Positions 1,214 through 30,847 of a DNA stretch of 32,000 nt are shown here, one piece after another. The stretch spans positions 3,240,001-3,272,000 of the forward strand of contig NC_008312.1 of assembly GCF_000014265.1 (NCBI RefSeq), in the 5' to 3' direction. The notes beneath the pieces were generated by a model, which was not told the DNA's origin, ran no database searches, and saw nothing but the letters and a program-made list of their open reading frames with translations. This DNA is from Trichodesmium erythraeum IMS101. GTDB lineage: Bacteria; Cyanobacteriota; Cyanobacteriia; Cyanobacteriales; Microcoleaceae. The position numbers and the translations under genes were made by a program. The first letter of the stretch is position 1, and the number at the start of each line of letters is the position of its first letter.

Positions 1214-3199
1214 TTACTGCCGCATAATCCAATAACCCCCCTCTTCCGACGGTTCTAACCGACCTCTTCGCTGCCCTGGGGAAGTATTATTAATTAATAA
1301 GTCCCGTATATCTTCAAGTACCAAACGAGCATCAGCAAAATAACCATGTCCTAATAAAGTTAAATCTATCTTAGAAACTTTTACCGTGTCTATTCCTTCT
1401 ACAACAGTAACAGGGGGGAAAAAACCAGCTCGGCCATGCTGATGAATAAGCGCTGAAGTTGCTAAGGCTTTGTCTTTTGATGATATGTATAATGTAGTTC
1501 GTTCTGCTAATTGATGATATCCTTTAGCTAACTCTTTAAACAAGTCAATATCTACATCTGGAGCGGCTAAAATAATTTGCCCAAAAGCAATATTAGTTAT
1601 TGTTTGAACTTGAGAAATAATTCTTTGGACTGCTCTGAGTAAACCTCGGTTTCCCATACTATGAGCAATAATATGAATTTTCTCAATGTCCGTTTTTTCG
1701 GCTAGGTTGAGTAAAAATTCTGTCATGTACTTTTCGCTGGCTTCAATACTTGCCTCGTCTACCGGATATGCTGATAATTTCCCTTGAGATGGCCAACTAT
1801 AAAAGGCTGTAATTCCTGGCACTTGCAGGTCAAACCCCATTTGTGCGGCTCTAATAGCTGCATCTTCAAAATTGACGTTGTATCCATGAACAAAGACTAA
1901 AGCAGACCTTTCATTTATTTCATGGTCTTTTAATTCTTCGTTGATATTTTCCCAAAATAGTTCTTTTTCCAGAATTTGCAAACTTTGAAAATGTAGTTTG
2001 AGGCGATCGTCTTTGAAAGTAATTAATCTTTTCCACAAAGGGGAACCTATAGAGCCTATTTTATGAGATTTAGGAACAGCTACTTGACAAATACCATAGT
2101 GAAGTTTGTCATCTCTTTTTCCGGAAAAACCTTTGGATATATTATTTGTATCTACAGGTTTTCTGTTGGTACCAAACCATAAAGGATATATAGTTGCTGT
2201 TGTTTCTTTAGTATCTTTTAAAATCAGAGATCTTTTGACTTTTACGGTTTCTTTTTTCTTTATTGCTTTCTTTGTTACGGCTTCTTTTGAAGTCAAATAA
2301 CCGTTGGTTTGATGACTTCTTAAACTGACAGTTTCTGACTCTAATAATGATGTATCAAAAGGAATAAAATGAGGAATTGGACTATCAGGTAATCTTAAGC
2401 GTTCAATTCCATTTATACCTAGTTGAAAAGCTTGATAATAGCTCCTTTGATATGCTAAACCTTGATAAAATTCTTCGGCAAATATCAAAGCAGAATCATC
2501 ACCAATCTCTTTTTTCATGCCAATAACACAACCTACCTGGTGAGCGACTGCATCAGCTTTTTTCAGAGAAAAACAGGCATTAAATACAACACATTCTATA
2601 GGTTTTCCATCTTTTCTAACAATAGATAATAATTCTGATAATGTTTCGAGGGATAAAACCTCTGCCTCACCTTGACGGTTGTTTAAAATTATTTCACCTT
2701 GAGAATTACCATGACCGCTAAAGTGAAGAATTCTAGGCTCATATTTCAGCAAATATTGAGATAAATCTTCTATAAAAGCATTTTCTTCTCCATAAACAAT
2801 ATAATTTTTTCCAAATTCTGTCTGCTGTAGTTTTTCCCTAATTAATTCAGTTTCTTTTTTTAATTGTAGTGGCTGTGTAGTTGTAGGGTTTGCTGCTAAA
2901 ACCAAAACATCACATTTTTCAATTGGAGGCGGAGGGGGATTTTCTCCTAATTTTGACTCATACTCTTGATAAACTTTTGGATTAATATTTTTAATGCCTT
3001 CAAGTAACCGCTCAATTTCTCTATGTTTGTCAGCATATTCAATTAAAATTCTGACTCTTTGCTTTTTATTTTGTCCATTTGTAAATTGGTTATAAACATC
3101 AGGAAAATAATCATAAACTAAGTCGTTAAATTCTTCTTCGGGTAGATCTTGATTAAGTAATTCCCGAATGACTTTTCTGAGTCTGAAATTATATAACAT
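1214..3199 (-). CDS. Three-module effector protein: N-terminal effector-associated domain, CHAT (caspase-fold) protease, and C-terminal DUF900-type alpha/beta hydrolase
   Basis: 661-aa ORF. Residues 1-85 form the EAD-like helical domain, followed by a PPPPP linker. The CHAT dyad context is ILHFSGHG (His163, nt 2711-2713) and VVFNAC (Cys209). The C-terminal half has VFVHGYN, the nucleophile elbow AHSMG (Ser514), AAPDVD and LLGHGY, which is typical of the DUF900 esterase/lipase family. Confidence 0.85.
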   Translation of the reverse strand: MLYNFRLRKVIRELLNQDLPEEEFNDLVYDYFPDVYNQFTNGQNKKQRVRILIEYADKHREIERLLEGIKNINPKVYQEYESKLGENPPPPPIEKCDVLVLAANPTTTQPLQLKKETELIREKLQQTEFGKNYIVYGEENAFIEDLSQYLLKYEPRILHFSGHGNSQGEIILNNRQGEAEVLSLETLSELLSIVRKDGKPIECVVFNACFSLKKADAVAHQVGCVIGMKKEIGDDSALIFAEEFYQGLAYQRSYYQAFQLGINGIERLRLPDSPIPHFIPFDTSLLESETVSLRSHQTNGYLTSKEAVTKKAIKKKETVKVKRSLILKDTKETTATIYPLWFGTNRKPVDTNNISKGFSGKRDDKLHYGICQVAVPKSHKIGSIGSPLWKRLITFKDDRLKLHFQSLQILEKELFWENINEELKDHEINERSALVFVHGYNVNFEDAAIRAAQMGFDLQVPGITAFYSWPSQGKLSAYPVDEASIEASEKYMTEFLLNLAEKTDIEKIHIIAHSMGNRGLLRAVQRIISQVQTITNIAFGQIILAAPDVDIDLFKELAKGYHQLAERTTLYISSKDKALATSALIHQHGRAGFFPPVTVVEGIDTVKVSKIDLTLLGHGYFADARLVLEDIRDLLINNTSPGQRRGRLEPSEEGGYWIMRQ

Positions 3200-3856: not shown

Positions 3857-5767
3857 CTATTCAGGAGTCCTGGGGGGGAAACTCACAAGACGAAAACCAA
3901 AATTGGAGCTGACCACCACGACCGAGACATAGTAGCCGCGGCTCGCAGAGCGACACCACCCAGGATAGTTGAGCCAGGAGCCGCCACGAAGCACTCTACC
4001 GCTACTATCGCCTCCATTTACCCAAGCACTTCCATCAACAGGTGCTCCATCATAATTACTATGCACAACATCCTGACACCACTCCCAGACATTCCCATGC
4101 ATGTCATATAGACCAAAAGCATTAGGTGGAAACTCACCTACAGGAGTTGTTTGTTCTCTATATTCTCCTTTTGGTTCATCAGCATAAGTCTCTGAAGCTC
4201 TATAATTAGCTAATTCTCCTGTGATAGTTTCTCCAAAATAAAAAGGTGTAGTTGTCCCAGCACGACAGGCATATTCCCATTCTGCTTCACTCGGTAGTCT
4301 ATAGTCTCTTCCTGTTTTCTTAGAGAGCTTTTGACAAAATTCTGTAGCGTTATTCCAACTTACTCTTTCCACAGGGCGATTTTTTCCTTTAAATTTCGAA
4401 GGATCATTTCCCATTATTGCTTGCCACTGTTGTTGAGTAACGACATACTTTCCCATCCAAAATTCTGGCACATCTACATGATGTTGCGGACCTTCATTAT
4501 CACTTCTCTGTGCTTCCGTCTCTGGAGACCCCATCAGAAAACTACCACCGGGTATTTTTACCATTTCCAGAGTAACTCCATTACCTAAATTTTCTATCAT
4601 TACTTCTGCTTCACCTTCAGAGCGGCTTATTATTTCTCCTTTCCTGTTAACTTTAGGAGTCGCAAATGTATGAATAGTAATTTTTGGCTGTGACTTTGTT
4701 TTTATTTGTGAGTTTGGTTCTAACTTCCGTTGTGACTGTAGTGAAGTTTGAATATTTGAACCTTCTAATACTTCTGTTGATCTTGGTTGTTGAGTTTCTG
4801 AAACCGGTAAATTCTGAAAATAACCTAGATCTAACTGTGGGGTGGAAACCAACTGAGATCTAAACCGATCAACAGCAATTTTCTGCAGAGCCTTAACTGC
4901 TTCAAGATCCAAACCTACCTCTAAAACTCTTATCCATAGTTGTTCTGCCCAATTAAAATCTCCATTTGTTTGAGCTCTGTAAGCGTCAATTTTCAGAGTA
5001 GAAACATCAGTTTTTGTTGCATACTTCGGCATTAAAATTAAATGAGACTTTTCAATAGGGTCAGCAATAATACGAGGGGTCTGTCGTTTTCCTTCCTTTT
5101 GAGCTAGCTCTTGCACCCGATACTTCAGATATTCATTCAGTCTTTCTGCAGTTGCTTTTTGACCCTTACTACCTAACCCCTCTAATAACGCATAAGTAAA
5201 AACTCCCTGTTGCAACTCTTCTAATTCCCAAGAACGTTCATTTGGACTACAAGAAAAAATAGTTACTATCCCCTTTTCACGAGCTTCTTGTTCTGTTTGC
5301 CTTCCTAGTCCTTCTCCCCCTTTTCCCCCATCACTTTTGTTTCTACAAGCATCCAATATTAGAACTATATTATCTGCTCCAGATTTTTGCAGTTGTTGAA
5401 TAATATAGTCAACAGAAATTCCACTTCTTTCAACATTTGAATGACCATCAATAGGAATTAAATAATCAATATTATTATTCTCTCTATGACCATGGCCGCT
5501 AAAAAAAAACCAAAGGTTATCACCAGTTTTCAGAGATAGTTTTTTAACTTCATCTTCTAACACCAATTCTAAGCGGGAACGAGTTGGGCGAGTTGAAGCA
5601 CCATTAATTTTTGGAGAATTATCTGACAAGTAAAAAACGTCATCAAAATCTGCTTCGTCGAGCAAAAAATCCCTCATTTTTTTAGCGTCATTAGCTGCAT
5701 ATTTTAGAGGAGTCAAAAACTCATATTCCTGAACTCCTATAGTAATTGCTATATTTTGATTGGTCAT
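3857..5767 (-). CDS. Orthocaspase (peptidase C14) fused to a C-terminal FGE-sulfatase / C-type-lectin-fold domain
   Basis: 636-aa ORF. The caspase dyad context is WFFFSGHGH (His92) and LILDACRN (Cys141). The C-terminal ~270 aa carry FGE-family motifs (IPGGSFLMGSP, VDVPEFWMGKYVVTQQQW, RLPSEAEWEYACRAGT, GLYDMHGNVWEWC, RVLRGGSW, GFRLV). Confidence 0.9.
   Translation of the reverse strand: MTNQNIAITIGVQEYEFLTPLKYAANDAKKMRDFLLDEADFDDVFYLSDNSPKINGASTRPTRSRLELVLEDEVKKLSLKTGDNLWFFFSGHGHRENNNIDYLIPIDGHSNVERSGISVDYIIQQLQKSGADNIVLILDACRNKSDGGKGGEGLGRQTEQEAREKGIVTIFSCSPNERSWELEELQQGVFTYALLEGLGSKGQKATAERLNEYLKYRVQELAQKEGKRQTPRIIADPIEKSHLILMPKYATKTDVSTLKIDAYRAQTNGDFNWAEQLWIRVLEVGLDLEAVKALQKIAVDRFRSQLVSTPQLDLGYFQNLPVSETQQPRSTEVLEGSNIQTSLQSQRKLEPNSQIKTKSQPKITIHTFATPKVNRKGEIISRSEGEAEVMIENLGNGVTLEMVKIPGGSFLMGSPETEAQRSDNEGPQHHVDVPEFWMGKYVVTQQQWQAIMGNDPSKFKGKNRPVERVSWNNATEFCQKLSKKTGRDYRLPSEAEWEYACRAGTTTPFYFGETITGELANYRASETYADEPKGEYREQTTPVGEFPPNAFGLYDMHGNVWEWCQDVVHSNYDGAPVDGSAWVNGGDSSGRVLRGGSWLNYPGWCRSASRGYYVSVVVVSSNFGFRLVSFPPRTPE
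3899..3994 (-). other. Candidate DGR variable region (VR) at the 3' end of the orthocaspase-FGE gene
   Basis: The stretch is abruptly GC-rich and adenine-poor on the coding strand. It encodes VLRGGSWLNYPGWCRSASRGYYVSVVVVSSNFGF and is dominated by NNC/NNT codons (CTC AAC TAT AGC GGC TAC TAT GTC GTC GTC AGC TCC AAT). These sit between the invariant scaffold residues GGSW, CRSA.R and GFR. No template repeat or DGR RT is present in this window. Confidence 0.4.
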
Positions 5768-8380: not shown

Positions 8381-8487
8381 AAGTTAAAAAAAATTACAAT
8401 ATAGAGCAAAAATCAATCTGTCACTTTTTAGTGCAACAATAATAGATTATTTTGCCCTTGTATTCAACTCAAACTGAGAATAATTTT

Positions 8488-8683
8488 ATGGATAAATTTC
8501 AAGTAGCAGTTATTGCTAAAACAGCAGATCCTCAACAGGTAATTTATGCAGCTTTACATCAAGATTATAGTGAAGGATTTGTATTTGATCAAAAAAATAT
8601 TTGGCCTTCAGAAACCAAATGTGGGGAAATTCTTGTTAAACGACTTTTAGTAGGCGATCGCGGACATTATGGATGTCTTGAAC
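8488..8683 (+). CDS. thyX: Flavin-dependent thymidylate synthase ThyX, exon 1
   Basis: Runs from the ATG at 8488 (MDKFQVAVIAKTADPQQVIYAALHQDYSE..GDRGHYGCLE) to the group II 5' splice site. The track ORF 8452..8709 reads through into the intron and uses an upstream TTG start. Confidence 0.8.
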
Positions 8684-9941
8684 GTGCGACTCGTTGGCCA
8701 AGAACCTAGGACAACCTAGTATAAATGGCCATCCTTAGTCAATACATGAGGATAACCTCGACTAATGGATAACTCTTATGTCCTTGGTGGTGAAATTCCA
8801 TCCGCCTTGTTGTTGGGTTGACAGCATAGGCCACAGGGTAGAGACTGAACATCAATCCCTGAAGCTGGCTTAAATGGGGTCAAAGCTTTAACTATCAAAT
8901 AAGTGAGACTTCTAGCAGAGACTAACAAGTGAACGAACAGGAAGGTAATTAAACTCTCGTAACATTCATTCATCCCAAAGATAGCTATGGGTTGTAGGCC
9001 AAAAGTCAGAGGGTCTTTGGATAATAATGTGTTCAAGCTATTATCAACAACCATACCGGATCCTCCGGGAGATTTTACCTCACTAAATTAGTCGCAATAA
9101 AGGCATAAGGGAACGAGGAAACCTCTTTAAGACACCCAAGAATATAGGTCAAAAACTTGGGAAGCCATTCAAGGTCAATCTACGCAAAGCCCGTAGGTCT
9201 TAAGGAGAGTAGGATTGGGTAAAAAAGCACAATTTATGCAGACGTACCCACTGTTAGACGTAATGTAAGGCAATAATTAGCAATAAAAAAAGCCAAAACA
9301 CTAAAAAACATTTAGGGTCACCTAAACTATTTTTAAGTGTGGCATGAAATACAAAAGATATAGGTTCCTAAAGCAGTTTTAATCCAAATTTGAAGTGGAA
9401 AAATATAAACTGGAAATTAGTCCTGAAAAATGTATTTAAGTTGTAAAAGTTAACTTACAGAGCATCCCGTTGTGGCAAACTCCGCAATATGCGTAAATAC
9501 CAAAGACTTCTGAGCAAAAGCTATTACCCTAGGCTGTTAGCTTTTAGGCACGTGACGCAAAGTTACCATAGCAGAAATAGTAAATATCCAGGGGTAAAAA
9601 AAAGAAGTCACAATACTGTCAAAGCAGCAAAAGAGTAAACATGCATCTTGTGGATTATATTTTTGACCAAGGGTATAAATTGAAACAGACCACATCGTTC
9701 CTAGGTTTGAAAGTGGTGACAACACCTATAAAAATCAACAGTTGTTGTACCAACATTGCCACAACGTTAAGACTACCAAAAATTTAAAAGCAAATTATTA
9801 GGACTCATTAAGTCCAAAGTAGAACTTTAAGGATGTGCCCTTGAATAGGGACGTTTAAGAGAGGAGCCGTGATGAGGTGAAAGTCTCACGTCCGGTTCTG
9901 AAGACAAGTCGGATCAGGTAACTTATCTGGCTTAGTTTAAC
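8684..9941 (+). mobile_element. Group II intron, ORF-less (intron-encoded protein degenerate or deleted), interrupting thyX
   Basis: The 5' end is GTGCGAC (8684-). The EBS1 candidate gttcaag (9031-9037) is exactly complementary to the last 7 exon nt, cttgaac (8677-8683). Domain V (gagccgtgatgaggtgaaagtctcacgtccggttc, 9864-9898) has the AGC triad and a GAAA loop. The 3' end is ..tttaac (AY). Removal fuses GHYGCLE|HPQITFNCGFFPHSVMQQARTHRIG in frame. The domain IV region (9192-~9560) is homologous to the IEP 5' region at 22525-22900, but ATG has become ATA and only ~0.3 kb remains before domain V. Confidence 0.85.
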
Positions 9942-11362
9942 ACCCTCAAATTACTTTTAATTGTGGATTTTTTCCCCATAGTGTTATGCAGCAAGCAAGA
10001 ACTCATAGAATAGGTTGCTGTTTGTCGGGCAATACAAAAGTTAGATTTAGGTATTCGTCTTCATCCCAAGAAGCGAAATATTATGAGGAAACAATTGAAA
10101 AATTAGCTAACTTATGGCATTACGGGAGCAAAAATCAATATACTTCTAAAGATGCAAAATGTATGCAAGAAAATATATCTAGCCGTAATATTTTTACTCT
10201 AGATACCCAAACTAACCAAATTGTTTCTAGCAAAATTACCAACATATATATTAATGGTGAAAAAGAAACTTACACAATAAAAACTGTTTCTGGTAAGGAA
10301 ATAAGAGCTACCCTAGAACACCAGTTTTGGACTAACCAAGGGTGGAAACGATTAAAAGATTTTAATAACAGCACTCAATTATGTGAAGTGCAATTAGCTG
10401 GAAATAAAGTTACTCCACAAGAAGTTAAATTTCTCGAAAAAGAAATGTTTAATGAAAAGTGGATCCCAGTAAGAAATTATGACGGATATAAAATTTATAG
10501 CTTAGATATTTTGAATTCTTACCTTATTCAAAAAGAGAATAAAGAGCATTCACGGAGCAAATCTAAAAATTGTTTACTTCCCAATTTAAATTATGGAATT
10601 AGGTATGATCGACTTTCAGAAGTAAATATAAATAGATTAGTAATGGAAAACTTGAAATTATTAGGAGAATACAAGGAACTTGAAGTCAGACATTTAAATG
10701 AGAATAGTTTTAACAACAAGCCAAAAAAATTTGCCTGGAATTCTAGCAAAAGCGACCAAATTGACAATATCAATAACAATAGTTTCTCTGATAATTCTGG
10801 TGTTTTTGTAGAGATAGAATCTATTGAAAAATTTGGCAAAGAAATTACTTATGATCTTGAAGTCGAACACCCAGAACATAATTTTATAGCCAATGGTTTA
10901 GTTGTTCATAATTCTTTCGATGTACAAAGTTATCGGTTTTGTTCGGGAAAAGTTATTGCAGTAGCAGATGGAAAAACTGATATAGAAACTGCTTTTTACT
11001 TACGTCCAGTCGGAGAATATTCTGACCGCAAAGGTAAAAAATATTATTATTCCGCCGAACAACGAGAAAAAGATTTATATTGGTGTTTAGAAGCAGCTAA
11101 GAAATACAAACTTGATATGGAACTTGGAATGTCTGAAGAACATGCCAGAGGAAAAATTCCTTTTGATTATCGTCAGCATTTTGTTGTCAGTTTTAATTGT
11201 CGTAGTTTGCTACATTTTTTAGATTTACGTTTTAAAAAGAATGCTCAATTAGAAATTCAAAAACTTTGTGAATTAATGTGGCCTCATTTTCAAGATTGGG
11301 TTCCCAATATAGCAGAATGGTATGAAAAAAATAGACTTAAAAAAGGCAAATTAGCACCTTAA
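9942..11362 (+). CDS. thyX: ThyX exon 2 (contains an in-frame intein at 10019-10912)
   Basis: The exon starts with AC, completing a His codon begun in exon 1. The extein sequence is HPQITFNCGFFPHSVMQQARTHRIGC ... SFDVQSYRF..ARGKIPFDYRQHFVVSFNCRSLLHFLDLR, matching the ThyX RHR-X7/8-S region and C-terminal motifs. Confidence 0.85.
10019..10912 (+). mobile_element. Intein (298 aa) within the ThyX signature motif, with a central HNH/NUMOD4-like homing endonuclease remnant
   Basis: Block A is CLSGNTKV at the N-terminus and block B is RATLEHQFWT. Blocks F/G are EITYDLEVEHPEHNFIANGLVVHN, followed by +1 Ser (SFDVQS). The central region EKWIPVRNYDGYKIY ... INRLVMENL ... LEVRHLNENSFNN parallels NUMOD4 + HNH_3 endonucleases. 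The N-terminal boundary could instead be one codon earlier (10016). Confidence 0.85.
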
Positions 11363-13042: not shown

Positions 13043-13279
13043 ATTTGCCTTTTGTGACATAGGAAAAAAATTTAACCCTAGCTGACTTAGGAGATTAATT
13101 ATTATCACTAAATTGGGGGAAATGATCGTTATTCTCTGTAGTTTATAGCCTATGCCATATATTTTTCAGTCAATATGCTCTTACCCTATATTTAAAAATA
13201 GAAAGCACATTATGAAAAGTAAAAACATCATCCTTAACCCAATTTTGCCAGTCAAATTTTTAGTAAGTTTTTTACCTTT

Positions 13280-13838
13280 GCTAAGAATTTGAAAATTCAA
13301 GTTGAATTTAATCCGGCAAAAGTACAAGCTTATCGTTTAATTAGCCATGAAAATTGACTGTTACGTTCTCAAGATTTTAATGACAATACAAAAGATGCGG
13401 GAGATTTTGGTACAGGATATTTGGTTACGGCACTTTATGAAATTATTCCAGTGGGAGTAGAAAGTAATATGAAATTATCAGAAGTTTATCAATTGAGATA
13501 TCAAGATAATTAAGTTTATCAACCAGCTTAATAATAGTGGTCAATTAATATTAGTTAAGTTGTGTTATAAGGAGCAAAATGGTAAAAATTCTGAGTTAAT
13601 TCAACAGCCCGATGTTAATAAGGGAGTAAGTTTCAATAATGCTTCAAATGGTTTTAAATTTGCTGCTGCTGTGGCTGAGTATGGAATGATTTTACGAGAT
13701 TCTGAAAATCAAATTGATGCTAGTTTAAATAAAGTATTGAAGTTAGCAAATGAGTCGAATGGTTTAGATTTAGAAAGTTATCGGAGTGAGTTTATTAATA
13801 TGGTTGAAAGTAGCCAGAAATTGATGGGTCAAAAGTAG
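13280..13838 (+). pseudogene. C-terminal remnant of a YfbK-like von Willebrand factor A protein (DUF3520-type region)
   Basis: It reads AKNLKIQVEFNPAKVQAYRLISHEN* LLRSQDFNDNTKDAGDFGTGYLVTALYEIIPVG... An in-frame TGA at 13355-13357 sits where homologues have Arg (YENR). A further stop follows, then the ORF-track fragment 13560-13838 (..FKFAAAVAEYGMILRDS..SYRSEFINMVE). The vWA domain itself is missing upstream. Confidence 0.7.
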
Positions 13839-13979: not shown

Positions 13980-15836
13980 TTATTTTTCAACATCTTGAAT
14001 AGAACAAGATTCTTTTCTATTTTTATTCAAAAAGTCTCTAATTTTTATCGGAGAAGAACTTGCATCTGGAATTTTAGGATGATCTCGTTGAAACAAAGAT
14101 TCATTGTATGCTGCTTCAGTAATTTCTAACAAAGCCATAACATTTTTTTTGATATTGTTAAGCTCTTGTCTGATTTCCTCCCAGTCTAAACCTTCTTCTA
14201 TAAATATAATGAGTAAATTAATCCAACCACCCCAAAATTTTGAGTAAATAAAAGAAGTATTTCTTGTTTTATTTCTACTTTTTAAGTTATCTTCATCTCT
14301 ATTAAAAGTTGAAAAAATATAGTTAAAATAACGCTCAAATAAAGCTGTTCCTTTTTCTACTAATGTTTCTTTTTCAGATAATTTTTCTATAGTTGAATCA
14401 AATAATTTCTCATATCCATCTTTTTTTAAAAGAGTATTCCTAACTTTGGCTTTTGTTAACTGTTCGATCTTTGTAATGTTTGTAATTTTTTTAATTGCCT
14501 CAATAATTATTCCAGCATCAATAATACCTTTATTTGCTTTATCCGACGTTAGATTAAAAAATTGCTTAAAGTTTTGTCTAGTATTTAAATTGACAATAAT
14601 CTTTGTAGCAATTACTTTTGGCTCTTTACTTCCCAATTCATAAGCAATTTTATCTGTATGAGTTATTTCTACTTTTGTTTGATTCATATTGATTTCTAGA
14701 AATACTTTAGCGCTAAACTTATTAATAATTTCTTGATTCTCAGTTTTAAAATCAACTGCTGTCACCATTATTTTACAATCATTTTGCATAATTGATTTGA
14801 CCTTTTGATCCGCATAAGAAAATAATCTATGTTGACCATCAATTACAGAAATACTTCCATACTTTCTAGGAATATACAAACAACCATCGTTACGTTCGTC
14901 ATATGTACATTCTTTAGATAGAACCACCAAAATATTAGATGGGAAAATAAAATCAGGATTTGTTAATAAATTTTCCCTGATTTTTTTTAATTTATCGGGT
15001 ATTAAAGGTCTTTGATAATTATAGGTTGAACTATCCTCTAATAAAGGAAGTTCATCTTGTCTATATACACGAACTATATTTAGTATCTTGTATGGGGATA
15101 TAGTAAATGTATACAAATCTGATAAAGGTGCATCATTATCTTTTTTACTAATTTGCTTATTAGTACTTCTAATTAGTTGATGATATTTCTTATCAATTGA
15201 AATAGAAGTTTTATCTATCTCGTCATCGATTTTAAATAAATTTAAAAAATAGTTTCTAGTGTATTCTCCTATATCGTCAGAATATTCCTTTAATCTCATA
15301 TAATCTGATTTATAAAATTTAACTATATCCCTCGCTTCTGGTAAATCAATTCTGCCTTCTCCATTGCCTTCTTCTACAGTTGTAGTAATGAAAAATCCTT
15401 TAATTGACTGTATATTTCTAAATTTTCTTATATGTTCTGTTTTTATACCTAATTTTTGCCAAATATAATCGGAAAATTCTAACTTTTTAATTATATTGAT
15501 TTGATTAATAAACTTTTTATACTTTGTATTGATTTTTCCTTCATCTCTTGATGTTATTTCACCTATTAAACAAACTTTATCTATAGGTATCATGTAATCA
15601 AATTCAAGATGCTCGTTGTTTGGATATTCTGGTGCTATATCTTTTAACTGTACTTGACCTAAATCATTAAAACAATCTAATCCAATAGCTTCAAAAATAC
15701 ATTTTCCTTCTTGTTCGAGTTCTTTTCCTGATTTTCCTTGTAAAGATTTATTCATATTTTGCAATGATGTATAGCTAAAAAATCCAAAATTTATATAAAT
15801 ATAAATATAAATATTAATATTTCCTCTGTACATCAC
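13980..15836 (-). CDS. DGQHR-domain (DndB-like, ParB/sulfiredoxin-fold) protein with an unassigned ~230-aa N-terminal domain
   Basis: The three hallmark motifs are YQRPL (aa 274-278), VIDGQHRL (DGQHR = nt 14826-14840) and FLEINMNQTKV (aa 379-389). The start is uncertain. The GTG/ATG at 15836/15833 directly abuts AGGAGG but adds a low-complexity NIYIYIYI leader. The ATG at 15755 (MNKSLQGKSG) is the conservative alternative. Confidence 0.8.
   Translation of the reverse strand: MMYRGNINIYIYIYINFGFFSYTSLQNMNKSLQGKSGKELEQEGKCIFEAIGLDCFNDLGQVQLKDIAPEYPNNEHLEFDYMIPIDKVCLIGEITSRDEGKINTKYKKFINQINIIKKLEFSDYIWQKLGIKTEHIRKFRNIQSIKGFFITTTVEEGNGEGRIDLPEARDIVKFYKSDYMRLKEYSDDIGEYTRNYFLNLFKIDDEIDKTSISIDKKYHQLIRSTNKQISKKDNDAPLSDLYTFTISPYKILNIVRVYRQDELPLLEDSSTYNYQRPLIPDKLKKIRENLLTNPDFIFPSNILVVLSKECTYDERNDGCLYIPRKYGSISVIDGQHRLFSYADQKVKSIMQNDCKIMVTAVDFKTENQEIINKFSAKVFLEINMNQTKVEITHTDKIAYELGSKEPKVIATKIIVNLNTRQNFKQFFNLTSDKANKGIIDAGIIIEAIKKITNITKIEQLTKAKVRNTLLKKDGYEKLFDSTIEKLSEKETLVEKGTALFERYFNYIFSTFNRDEDNLKSRNKTRNTSFIYSKFWGGWINLLIIFIEEGLDWEEIRQELNNIKKNVMALLEITEAAYNESLFQRDHPKIPDASSSPIKIRDFLNKNRKESCSIQDVEK
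15795..15818. repeat. Hexamer microsatellite (ataaat x3 plus attaat) in the 5' leader or extension of the DGQHR gene
   Basis: Read directly: ataaat at 15795-15800, 15801-15806 and 15807-15812, then attaat at 15813-15818. Confidence 0.7.
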
Positions 15837-16397
15837 CCTCCTGTTGAAAAGTATGACTAATTTATTTTAATTATAAAATATTTACAATACCATACTTTCT
15901 ATTGAGTAGCGTTGATAAAATTTAGAACATTTCAATAAATCAAATTATTCTGTACTAATAATATATATGCCCTCCCTTTTCAAAGTAGTTTAGGAGGATA
16001 TTTTCTAGGATAATCTTTAGTATTTCAGATTACGAGAATTTTTGCGGTATTATCGTCAAGTTCAATATAACCTCACTTGGAGAGGATCCATATCCATCGC
16101 TCGGAATTTTTTTTTGCTAACTTTTCAGCCCTTAGACGCCCTGTTCAGCTTTTTGACTTTTTTGTGCCAACCTTTCTTCACTTGTAGTTAACAAATTACC
16201 TTCACTATTCTACCAACTTAACTAAGGTAGTTCCACCTTGTGATACCTACCAGATCAAACGCCTAAGTCTACTCCTAATAGTCCAATTAAATAATAACCC
16301 CGATCATTTGCCTATATTTGTTCTTACAAATTTATACACTTCTACTCCCGGGTTTTTAATTTCATAAATAGTATAAGTGCCTAAAGAAAACTAATTA

Positions 16398-16880
16398 CAT
16401 ATTTTTGCTCAAAATTATCAAGCACTTTTTTGAGATAATTAAGTAAACTTTCTCTATTCTCATAAGCATCAAATTCAATCCATTCACATTCAATAAATTT
16501 TCCAAAAATCTAAACAAAAATCTCAATTAAGTTTTGCTTAGTTGAGTAAATAGGTAACTCAAAAATCTGGAAATTTATTTACTCCTATTCCTCTAACTTT
16601 TTAATTAACTTATCACCCTTTATAATTGAGGATTAAACCATAATTACTACTGTAGTTTTAGACAAATTGTAACTAAATATATCTGAAAACTATCGGAATA
16701 TTTAACTGTTGATAATTCTGCGGTTAACTTCATAATATAATTCATTTATACGATTCATTCACCCCGAGATATTAATTATTTTACTTTGACAACTTTTAGC
16801 AGTTATTATTAGTATTTTTTCCGTCCCAGCAAACATAAAACATCAAATAAAATCCACTAATATATCCTCAATATCTGAAT
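16398..16880 (-). pseudogene. IS630/Tc1-mariner-type (DDE_3) transposase relic
   Basis: The minus-strand translation, broken by stops, reads ..TTVVIMV*SSIIKGDKLIKKLEE.. LPIYSTKQNLIEIFV*IFGKFIECEWIEFDAYENRESLLNYLKKVLDNF. This matches the vvIMDNasfHk ... LPpYSPeLNpIE ... C-terminal pattern of IS630-family transposases. Confidence 0.45.
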
Positions 16881-17209
16881 TCAAATTATCCCTTTTCCTT
16901 TGATTTTTATTTCAGCTCTAATAATGTAGTTTTTTTTTACTTATACTTTCCAGCTATCAGGAGTTTTACTTAGTCTTCTTTTCAATTGTTTCTACAGTAT
17001 ATTCAATTTTTTTATAATTATTTTTATCATTTATTTGTTAATATCTATTCCCTACTGTGGAAGTCTTATACCCACCTGTTTCAAATTCTTTTCTTTTTGA
17101 TTATATAATCCTAAAAAAACTTGGATTTTTCCATATTTTCAACTAATGATCAATAGTTCTTCTGTTAACTTCAAAAAAAAATTATTAATTCCGAAGTCAT
17201 CAAAAATAA

Positions 17210-22524: not shown

Positions 22525-23478
22525 CGTAGGTTTTAAAGAGAGTAGGATAAGGTAAAAAGCTATCAAGCTTACCTACTCACCTTTGGACATAAAGTGAAGT
22601 AATTACTAGCAATGAAAAAGGCTAGAACACTAAAAAATAATTTTGAACACCCCAAACAATGTTTAAGGGTGGCATGGGGTTTAGACGATATTCCAAGCAA
22701 AGTATGCGTCAATCATAGTCTTAAGTGGAAGAACATTGAATGGAAAAAAATAGAAAAGTATGTGTTTAAGTTGCCAAAGTTAATTTACAGAGCTTCCAGT
22801 CCTGACGAAATCTGCTTTTCGGCGCAAATACTAAAAACTTCTGAGCAAAAACTATTACTCAAGATTGCTTGCTGGCTGTGACGCACGTGAACAACCAGGG
22901 TAAGACAACTGTGGGAGTAGATGGAATTAAAGACCTAACTTCTATGCAGTAGCTCAACCTAGTTAATAGATTGAAAAGGTTTCACCACAGACTGAAAAAA
23001 AACCGCAGAGTTTGGATATTTCAACCAGGTAAGGATGAAAAACCAGCACTAGGCATACCAGCTATGGAGGATAGAGCGTTATAAATCTTAGTAAAAAGGA
23101 TTTCAACTTGTTGAGGGAAGCACTTTTGAACTGAATAGCTATGGTCTTTTCCGGAGCTCAATACATGATGCTATCCAAACTATCTTTTAGGGCATATCCA
23201 CAATATTTAAGTATAGCATATTTCGGATATATAAGGTATAGGCTAAATAGTAACAATTATGTAGTGCGGGCATATTGCCCGCATTAGCATAACTCATAAC
23301 AAGGTCAAGCGCTGTATGTTCTGGATACTGACATAGCAAAATGTTTTGAGCAGATTAGCCATGAAGCGTTATTGAAGAAAATAGGGGATACACTATATAG
23401 GCTATTGATTAAACAGTGGTTAAAGTCTGGGGTTATGGATAAGCAAAAACTGACCGAAGGCACACTATAAGGAAGATT
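22525..23478 (+). pseudogene. Dead group II intron fragment: domain IV start plus the N-terminal half of the reverse transcriptase/maturase, with stops, frameshifts and a repeat insertion
   Basis: It is homologous to thyX-intron positions 9192-~9560. The track ORF 22612-22881 is the IEP N-terminus. Downstream broken frames read ..NQGKTTVGVDGIKD.., ..VWIFQPGKDEKPALGIPAMEDRAL*.. and ..LDTDIAKCFEQISHEALLKKIG..IKQWLKSGVMDKQKLTEGTL* (RT0-RT4). Domains I-III and V-VI are absent. The fragment is truncated next to the slt stop. Confidence 0.75.
23255..23283. repeat. Small palindromic dispersed repeat inserted in the RT pseudogene
   Basis: The sequence is aattatgtagtgcgggcatattgcccgca. The first 19 nt are identical to 3421-3439. 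There is a perfect hairpin tgcgggca-tat-tgcccgca (23265-23283). It sits between RT motif fragments. Confidence 0.6.
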
Positions 23479-29948: not shown

Positions 29949-30473
29949 TTATGCTAATATAAAAGATCGAATTCTTAGTCGCACTAAACCACATATTGTT
30001 AAGATTACTTTTTGATAATTATTATCTTTTAATCTGAATCTTTCTCTAGCAATTCCAAATATTTTAATTAATCTTATTACATGTTCTACAAATATTCTCT
30101 TTCTGGCTTTTTCTTGATTTTCTTCTTTGATTTCTAGCGGCATTTCTTTTTTTCTTGGTTTCTTTTTTGGTGTAGTAGTTCTTTCTACTCCTTCATAAGC
30201 TTTATCTCCTTGAAATTTTTGTTTTTTATCAAATTTATCCTGTTGTTTTCTTAATATTTTTACATCACTTACTGGACCTTTTTCTCCTACTATTACATCT
30301 ACTATTTCTGTTCCTTTTGGTGTCGTTATTATTTGATTTTTAAAAGTATGATTTTTATTTTTTCCTGAGTAATATTTTTCTTGGTCTTTATATTCACTTG
30401 GTCTTTCTCTACTTTGTTCTGTACTATCTACAATTAATTCTAATTCTGTTAATATCTCCTTTACCCATTCCAA
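29949..30473 (-). CDS. IS transposase orfB (DDE catalytic part)
   Basis: 174 aa; LIVDSTEQ..ERP..YYSGKNKNHTFKNQ..GDKAY..RIFVEHVIRLIKIFGIARERFR is the DDE_Tnp_4/IS5-type catalytic core. It overlaps orfA at the A12 tract in a different frame. Confidence 0.8.
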   Translation of the reverse strand: MEWVKEILTELELIVDSTEQSRERPSEYKDQEKYYSGKNKNHTFKNQIITTPKGTEIVDVIVGEKGPVSDVKILRKQQDKFDKKQKFQGDKAYEGVERTTTPKKKPRKKEMPLEIKEENQEKARKRIFVEHVIRLIKIFGIARERFRLKDNNYQKVILTICGLVRLRIRSFILA

Positions 30474-30847
30474 TTCATTTTCTTTTTTTTTTTTACTTGT
30501 TCTAATAAACTTGCTGGCAGTAATTCTCTGAGAATATCTATCCAGTAATGAAAAATATTATTAGCACTTGATTCACTTATACCAAAGTTAATTCCTAATG
30601 TTTGAAAAGTCGGTATTTGATGTAAATAAAATAACGTTAAAATTATTTCTTCCTCCTTTGTTAAATTCTTTTTTCTGACTCCACCTGCTTTAATTAATCT
30701 TTTTTCTGTTTTAGCGATCGCCTTCTTTTTCTCTGATTCTATTATTTGGGCCTTTGCTATTAATTTTATTAGCTGTTCATAAGTAATGCCAATAATTCTT
30801 TTTGTTTCTTTTGGATGGTTATAAATATATTCTAAAGTTGGATTCAT
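30461..30847 (-). CDS. IS transposase orfA (HTH_Tnp_4-like DNA-binding part)
   Basis: 128 aa; ..LTLFYLHQIPTFQTLGINFGISESSANNIFHYWIDILRELLP.. is typical of the helix-turn-helix N-terminus of IS5/Harbinger-type transposases. It ends in KKKKK, encoded by the A12 run (30483-30494). Confidence 0.8.
   Translation of the reverse strand: MNPTLEYIYNHPKETKRIIGITYEQLIKLIAKAQIIESEKKKAIAKTEKRLIKAGGVRKKNLTKEEEIILTLFYLHQIPTFQTLGINFGISESSANNIFHYWIDILRELLPASLLEQVKKKKKMNWNG

Follow-up and report, generated by a model that had tools for sequence, protein, structure and literature searches.

A rare protein joining a predicted nuclease-like domain to a DGQHR domain, linked to Pbe/Dnd clusters in other phyla and solitary in Trichodesmium erythraeum

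The Trichodesmium gene and the closest described systems

The DGQHR ParB/Srx-like domain is the nucleotide- and DNA-binding switch of DndB and DpdB, and a DGQQR form of it is present in GmrSD and SspE. In SspE, GmrSD and BrxU, a ParB-like DUF262 DGQQR NTPase (NTP, nucleoside triphosphate) is followed by a C-terminal DUF1524 HNH nuclease. The gene described here, from Trichodesmium erythraeum IMS101, codes on the minus strand for a 591-amino-acid protein in which a DGQHR domain is preceded by a predicted nuclease-like domain; it lies within a stretch of 32,000 nucleotides (contig NC_008312.1, positions 3,240,001 to 3,272,000), called the window in what follows. The protein is taken, with a rough probability of 0.5, to be a functional NTP-gated, DNA-sensing nuclease, stemming from a Pbe/Dnd accessory gene and working without adjacent partners, either alone or in trans.

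The Pbe system has been described as made of four genes, PbeB and PbeD being 66 and 152 amino acids long (PMC6459918, Xiong 2019). PbeA combines an HKD domain with a superfamily 2 (SF2) helicase, PbeC is a CxC ABC ATPase and PbeD is a cognate of DndE (PMC10853773, Aravind group 2024), and many associated nucleases are listed in the same paper. In the text of these two papers, a fifth Pbe gene with a DGQHR or restriction endonuclease (REase) domain is not named. SspE is tied to phosphorothioate systems (PMC9646914), and the joining of ParB-like domains to PD-(D/E)xK nucleases is, as a general type, already known (PMC3632139). A search of the searchable literature returned nothing on dnd or pbe genes of Trichodesmium or on a named fifth Pbe gene; the family, its position as fifth Pbe gene and the solo clade of cyanobacteria appear to be undescribed there.

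The likeness to PbeABCD is one of context, as non-cyanobacterial genes of the family adjoin the pbe cassette, mostly co-directional and directly downstream of pbeD. The full set is present at the non-cyanobacterial homologues, whereas no PbeA, PbeB, PbeC or PbeD is encoded in the window. With DndB the family shares the ParB/Srx-like core and its QR, DGQHR and FxxxNxN motifs, as well as the vicinity of dnd genes outside cyanobacteria. An hhalign comparison with canonical DndB gave a probability of 56% (E=1e-4) over 142 columns, covering the ParB core only. The family protein is about 225 amino acids longer than DndB, has a nuclease-like domain at its N-terminus and differs in its C-terminal region; its gene follows pbeD, whereas a separate DndB heads dndBCDE in other phyla and the window holds no dnd gene.

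SspE, GmrSD and BrxU resemble the focal protein in that a ParB-like, nucleotide-dependent DNA sensor and a nuclease are carried by one polypeptide. The focal motif is, however, DGQHR and not DGQQR, and the predicted nuclease is of the PD-(D/E)xK type and N-terminal, not a C-terminal HNH; DUF262 and DUF1524 gave no Pfam match at E≤1 in the focal protein. DpdB (NF041060), of the 7-deazaguanine Dpd system, is also a DGQHR ParB-like protein, and the family member of Leptolinea shows a weak PADLOC match to it (E=1e-10). The focal protein has no DpdB match and no dpd genes nearby, and DpdB lacks the extra nuclease-like domain.

Gene context and domain composition of the family

When a profile built on the N-terminal domain was searched against 1.84 billion representative sequences, it retrieved 134 proteins; nearly all of the complete ones are 560-620 amino acids long and begin with the domain. 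The family is thus rare, and the domain is confined to this arrangement. A genome scan yielded 25 full-length or near-full-length relatives. Identity to the focal protein is 26-45% for distant homologues and 54-89% for close orthologues. Plasmids gave only five weak matches to the DGQHR core and phages none.

At all of the 16 non-cyanobacterial genome loci (L010-L017, L019-L025) the gene is found at the junction between pbe and dnd cassettes. The hosts belong to Chloroflexota, Rubrobacteraceae, Trueperaceae, Isosphaeraceae, Latescibacterota, Poribacteria, Bacteroidota and 'Ca. Onstottus'. Two metagenome loci (L087, L088) show a five-gene operon, pbeA-pbeB-pbeC-pbeD-family gene, with gaps to pbeD of 39 and 12 bp. 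All 18 non-cyanobacterial loci thus have the gene within a dnd/pbe cluster or at its edge. In most of them it comes directly after pbeA-(B)-C-D, is read in the same direction and has dndCDE(A)(B) as a neighbour; in L010 it is convergent. Outside cyanobacteria, the family is the fifth gene right after pbeA-pbeB-pbeC-pbeD, next to dndCDE(A)(B).

At the Leptolinea locus (L012), the gene is accompanied by PbeA (PADLOC, 810 bits; TIGR04095), PbeC (546 bits) and a dnd_assoc_4 protein in the PbeD position, followed on the opposite strand by DndA, DndE, DndD, DndC and a canonical DndB (505 bits). Canonical DndB co-occurs with the family gene in L012, L013, L015, L017, L019 and L087. At three loci the family member is adjoined by a restriction endonuclease made of HARE-HTH and Mrr_cat domains (L011:11840-12646, L024:11653-12450 and L025:12604-13416), which matches the 'REase fused to HARE-HTH' class of PMC10853773.

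The cyanobacterial loci (the window, L001-L009, L018 and L081-L086) contain no dnd or pbe gene within the retrieved flanks, up to 10 kb on each side. In this lineage the gene is carried by Trichodesmium, Okeania, Dapis, Pleurocapsales and some Nostocales, next to genes for GlmS, histidine kinase, HAD, LysE, MacB, Uma2, AAA ATPase and DUF1257 proteins and to toxin-antitoxin genes. A conserved new partner was looked for: the one upstream gene common to L004, L006 and L009, coding for 626-640 amino acids, is GlmS, and since the other neighbours are histidine kinase, HAD, LysE, MacB and Uma2 genes, no partner is recognized in cyanobacteria. A vWA gene was also rejected as an obligate partner; it is syntenic in Microcoleaceae, but decayed to a pseudogene in the window, and it is missing elsewhere.

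In neighbour-joining (NJ) trees, the cyanobacterial sequences form one clade. When the ParB core was analysed with canonical DndB as outgroup, all of 100 bootstraps recovered the cyanobacteria as a monophyletic group placed inside the pbe/dnd-linked lineages, so that linkage most likely came first and the solo state arose from it. Whether orthologues are embedded in canonical clusters, a point raised by the original prediction, has a twofold answer: distant homologues (26-45%) consistently are, close orthologues (54-89%) are not.

Two sets of short sequences were examined as well. Members of the P0003 cluster 42-49 amino acids long, considered as possible pseudogenised Trichodesmium copies, are N-terminal fragments of NusB from unrelated bacteria, brought in by a clustering artefact; their presence in this 90%-identity cluster could mislead counts of family members. 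The P0001 cluster has members of 61-69 amino acids; these correspond to N-terminal fragments, and the annotation of at least one says 'partial'.

The original prediction, made on the window sequence, had assigned the open reading frame (ORF) 13980..15836 to a DGQHR protein; counted from a GTG, this frame codes for 618 amino acids. It is intact and the family assignment holds; the start is to be moved to the ATG at 15755, because all 172 homologues and the NCBI gene call (591 amino acids) begin 27 codons later, so that the protein begins with MNKSLQ. The segment left out is most likely a 5' untranslated region (UTR) with an AT-rich simple repeat.

The protein is composed of three parts, namely a nuclease-like N-terminus, a central DGQHR ParB/Srx-like domain and a helical C-terminal region. 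The generic DGQHR model TIGR03187 is matched with 72.8 bits, above the curated cut-off of 58.85 (E=3.8e-20; amino acids 239-522 of the 618-amino-acid ORF). As predicted, the three motifs are intact in the translation, as YQRPL (Q248, R249), IDGQHR (D306-R310) and FLEINMN (F352, N356, N358), and they are conserved in a 30-sequence alignment, where Q248, R249, D306-R310, F352, N356 and Q359 are invariant. A DndB identity is not upheld. The Pfam DndB model PF14072 is barely above threshold (32.7 vs 29.1 bits) and covers 98 of its 338 positions; the equivalog TIGR03233, whose cut-off is 328 bits, gave no match at E≤1, with neighbouring canonical DndB proteins scoring 505, and the hhalign match to canonical DndB given above is limited to the ParB core. 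TIGR04172 (DGQHR_dnd_1) reached 27.7 bits, short of its 450-bit cut-off.

The full-length structure model has a mean predicted local distance difference test (pLDDT) of 85.9 and gave weak Foldseek matches to Spo0J, sulfiredoxin and BrxU (E>0.07), BrxU being at the top; a full-length profile run against PDB sequences returned noise only. In this model the family-specific C-terminal region, starting at about amino acid 410, is all-helical, with pLDDT mostly above 90. Its conserved residues are F477, F484, D487, W525 and F575, and hhalign found no alignment between it and the C-terminus of canonical DndB.

The N-terminal region had been described as matching nothing recognised and as possibly nuclease-like, and both statements agree with the present results. 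Its approximately 178 amino acids have no Pfam match (24 members scanned) and no PDB match in a profile search, which returned noise only. Because the full-length Foldseek result was too weak by itself, the first 178 amino acids were modelled separately by AlphaFold2, using a 24-sequence alignment; the model has a pLDDT of 93.5 and a predicted template modelling score (pTM) of 0.88. The leading Foldseek matches in the PDB are overwhelmingly PD-(D/E)xK nucleases, with E between 2e-3 and 1e-1 and probabilities of 0.84-1.0. They include Bax1, Cdn1, the R2 restriction-like endonuclease, McrC, Card1, Can2 and the small subunit of R.BspD6I, and further VC1899, AF1548, AddAB, cap-snatching endonucleases and Hachiman. 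In a viral library, most named matches are PD-(D/E)XK nucleases, restriction endonucleases or exonucleases. Despite modest E-values and TM-scores, the agreement among the matches is strong and points to a PD-(D/E)xK fold in the model.

The conserved pattern of the domain is H49-x-E51-x-D53 ... C62-x3-E66-x-T68-x-R70. E51, D53, C62 and E66 are invariant in 30 sequences, and H49 is found in 151 of 177 family N-termini. E-x-T-x-R is present in 145 of the 177, and E-x-K without the arginine in 9. The basic residue at +4 (R) or +2 (K) would represent a catalytic lysine that has been relocated and not lost, as this pattern of residues suggests. The T. erythraeum protein also carries a 4-amino-acid in-frame insertion (EEGNGEGRIDL vs EEF----VLKL; amino acids 122-138, window 15343-15393, minus strand), located in a loop of the nuclease-like domain, where model confidence is about 81-90, and absent from the other 29 aligned homologues.

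Proposed function and alternative explanations

Nuclease activity, NTP gating and a defence role are what we infer for the focal protein; NTP/DNA-gated cleavage is proposed because of the analogy with SspE, GmrSD and BrxU (PMC3632139, together with general knowledge of these families). Outside cyanobacteria the family protein would most likely be a DNA-status-sensing nuclease that serves as effector or co-effector in a phosphorothioate-based defence. One cyanobacterial lineage would have inherited this gene only and kept it without neighbouring partners. In the proposed mechanism, the DGQHR domain would bind NTP and DNA, thereby gating the N-terminal nuclease, which might nick or cut DNA judged foreign. 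This would be the one-protein logic of GmrSD and SspE, with the nuclease at the opposite end. The original prediction had considered a stand-alone role plausible, and the whole cyanobacterial clade indeed retains the gene solo and intact.

Selection on the gene was evaluated by pairwise dN/dS (ratio of nonsynonymous to synonymous substitution rates), according to Nei and Gojobori, and by placing the observed nucleotide differences at random. Between the window and the Trichodesmium locus L081, dN/dS is 0.64 for the focal gene (dN 0.112, dS 0.174) and 0.16-0.38 for the neighbours; between the window and the Dapis locus L002, the values are 0.61 and 0.13-0.31. When the 200 differences from L081 are placed randomly, a mean of 10.7 stop codons is produced, and the frame stays open in none of 20,000 runs; the same result (0/20,000) is obtained for the 268 differences from L002. 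For the 97 differences from L084, a Tara contig, the probability of an open frame is 0.012, and here the gene is 94.5% identical vs 78.6% for the 380 bp upstream of it. All indels are multiples of three. The reading frame is clearly maintained by selection; an open frame together with a high dN/dS thus indicates a gene which is functional at the level of the clade and evolves fast. Such fast evolution is compatible with a conflict gene as well as with a constraint relaxed since the partners were lost.

Several results weigh against a functional NTP-gated nuclease. The focal dN/dS of 0.61-0.64 exceeds that of the neighbours two- to fourfold, and in some pairs it reaches about 1 or more over the N-terminal 180 codons, with a large sampling error; such values are also compatible with a constraint relaxed once the partners were lost. 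The Foldseek evidence is modest, the best E being 2e-3 and TM-scores 0.3-0.47. The lysine of the canonical ExK is a threonine in the focal protein and in most members, and about 20 of the 177 N-termini lack a basic residue at both +2 and +4; the fold could therefore be a non-catalytic DNA-binding module. PADLOC-DB 2.0.0 gave 0 families at E≤1 for the focal protein, and the searchable literature holds no biochemical or expression evidence for the gene.

A bolder form of the proposal, possible if rather doubtful, is that the family is an unrecognised fifth Pbe component supplying the nuclease missing from the PbeABCD description, and that its cyanobacterial form is now an autonomous single-protein immune nuclease, freed from phosphorothioate modification and from the CxC ABC-ATPase machinery. 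If so, it would offer a natural example of an accessory gene of restriction that turned self-sufficient and was then passed on vertically. More generally, if the nuclease interpretation is true, Pbe/Dnd clusters in at least 8 phyla carry a conserved fifth gene, with a nuclease fold fused to a ParB-like switch, which would be relevant to the still open question of how Pbe can stop viruses although no DNA cleavage is seen. The cyanobacterial clade would then be a natural experiment on a protein deprived of its operon partners, including that of Trichodesmium, a globally important nitrogen fixer with few restriction-modification systems (PMC8262939). If it is wrong, the gene would be a leftover in slow decay, and the finding would simply add another fast-evolving orphan to a genome already noted for pseudogenes.

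According to a different explanation, which is unlikely, the protein is a displaced component acting with a Pbe and/or Dnd module encoded elsewhere in the genomes of Trichodesmium and other cyanobacteria, so that its function would be phosphorothioate-dependent and not that of a single-gene system. Every non-cyanobacterial locus examined ties the family to pbe/dnd genes; according to PMC10853773, CxC/Pbe and Dnd modules frequently occur uncoupled from each other and in mixed combinations within genomes, and dndA is often unlinked (PMC3632139). However, the cyanobacterial loci have no partner in the retrieved flank, vs a distance of tens of bp from pbeD in other phyla, and no searchable paper links Trichodesmium to dnd genes, which is absence of evidence only.

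A role as a DndB-like DNA-binding regulator or chromosome-associated factor, with a catalytically dead REase fold serving for DNA binding or oligomerisation, is distinctly unlikely. DndB is a transcriptional repressor (PMC6459918, PMC4507180), threonine replaces the ExK lysine in most members, and the stable syntenic place of the gene among Microcoleaceae housekeeping genes is unusual for defence genes. The invariance or near invariance of D53, E66, E51 and H49 would nevertheless be unexpected for an inactivated REase, the relocation of the basic residue suggests a preserved active site, and fast protein evolution is typical of conflict genes. Because the family gene is an extra gene in loci already holding a canonical DndB, it is not a substitute for DndB, which also counts against a regulator.

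That the gene is a stranded remnant drifting to loss, whose functionless Trichodesmium copy is intact by inertia in a decaying locus, would account for the pseudogene state of the neighbouring vWA, Uma2 and IS630 genes, for a dN/dS above the 0.13-0.38 of its neighbours and for substitutions that are nearly flat by codon position (78/46/76), but it is improbable in view of the neutral simulations and in-frame indels reported above, of the retention of every family-invariant residue, and of the full-length copies found in T. erythraeum IMS101, in 21-75 and in several Trichodesmium metagenome-assembled genomes, as well as across three cyanobacterial orders at 54-89% identity.

Synteny and features of the window

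The gene had also been taken for an acquired accessory gene in an AT-rich island. This idea, and with it the view of the AT-rich surroundings as foreign DNA, is rejected: the G+C content at third codon positions (GC3) of the focal gene is 0.161, equal to that of the adjacent housekeeping genes (dCMP deaminase, 0.144; dUTPase, 0.169), and its position is syntenic in Trichodesmium, Okeania and Dapis. The focal gene was not gained recently as part of an island. On Tara Oceans contigs of another Trichodesmium (79% protein identity), the genes follow each other as in the window, namely penicillin-binding protein, RNase PH, CobO-like protein, focal gene, intact vWA gene, dCMP deaminase, dUTPase, thyX with intein, group II intron reverse transcriptase and MtnA. 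Parts of this order recur in Dapis, Okeania and another Microcoleaceae genome.

L084 (protein P0003, 89% identity) carries a Trichodesmium-type copy, with the vWA side and the 380 bp upstream kept. Farther upstream, three TerD genes, a peptide deformylase gene and a trypsin-PDZ protease gene are found instead; a rearrangement breakpoint therefore lies just upstream of the gene.

The features of the focal gene and of its immediate flanks are collected in Table 1.

Table 1. Features of the focal gene and its flanks (window coordinates).
Feature	Position	Strand	Basis
Coding sequence, 591-amino-acid protein	13980..15755	-	ATG 15755, stop 13980-13982; 29-homologue alignment and NCBI call
Spurious 27 codons upstream of the ATG in the mechanical ORF (GTG start)	15756..15836	-	absent from all homologues
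Predicted N-terminal PD-(D/E)xK restriction-endonuclease-like domain, amino acids 1-175	15231..15755	-	AlphaFold2 and Foldseek
Putative active-site segment HLEFDYMIPIDKVCLIGEITSR (H49, E51, D53 ... C62, E66, T68, R70)	15546..15611	-	translation
DGQHR domain (ParB/Srx-like, DndB-like), amino acids 212-495	14271..15122	-	TIGR03187, PF14072, hhalign core, weak Foldseek
DGQHR motif, amino acids 306-310	14826..14840	-	direct translation; invariant in 30-sequence alignment
Last ~96 amino acids of the C-terminal helical region, past the TIGR03187 match	13983..14270	-	full-length model
vWA/YfbK-like pseudogene, convergent with the focal gene	13209..13835	+	tblastn with the L081 vWA protein; YfbK_C match on a 92-amino-acid ORF
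Uma2-family (PF05685) relic, upstream	16141..16375	-	tblastn/blastx to intact Uma2 of L005 and L018
IS630-type transposase relic (DDE_3 and HTH)	~16387..17051	-	blastx to L004:15041-16039

The lack of the usual partners, as stated in the original prediction, extends to the whole window: dnd, pbe and ssp domains are absent from all ORFs of at least 80 amino acids, and none of these ORFs is related by BLAST to PbeA, PbeC, PbeD or DndA-E. The vWA pseudogene and the transposase relic described as flanking the gene were both recovered. Only residues 1-25 and 346-542 of the 542-amino-acid vWA gene are retained, in different frames, with the loss of about 26-345; the gene is intact (542-658 amino acids) in all Trichodesmium, Okeania and Dapis relatives. 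The transposase relic shows 48-54% identity over residues 115-331 of the protein encoded at L004:15041-16039. The Uma2 relic, missing from the earlier account, belongs to a putative endonuclease family, intact in L002, L005 and L018; this relic and that of the transposase lie back to back upstream of the focal gene, at 16141-17051 (minus strand). A scan for promoters and terminators gave sites no commoner than in shuffled sequence, and Rfam and tRNA scans gave nothing in the flanks of the focal gene.

Other features of the window were noted. The thyX gene is apparently split into a first-exon ORF (8452-8709) and a main part with intein (9986-11362), both on the plus strand and about 1.3 kb apart. 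At its end the gap contains domain V/VI of a group II intron (Rfam RF00029/RF04357, 9861-9941), and it therefore looks like an ORF-less group II intron, which would add to the intein in one gene. Of a group II intron reverse transcriptase, only the initial RVT_N part is left in an 89-amino-acid ORF (22612-22881, plus strand); this is another decayed mobile-element gene, because the versions in L003 and L018 are 549-614 amino acids long. The coding region of an IS5/ISL2-type transposase is divided between two minus-strand ORFs, HTH_Tnp_4 (30461-30847) and DDE_Tnp_4 (29949-30473), which overlap by 13 bp; this is either a frameshifted or a programmed-frameshift insertion sequence. Two adjacent genes on the minus strand code for large conflict-type proteins, an EAD7-CHAT-DUF900 hydrolase (1214-3199) and a caspase (Peptidase_C14)-FGE-sulfatase protein (3857-5767), which may represent a separate effector pair.

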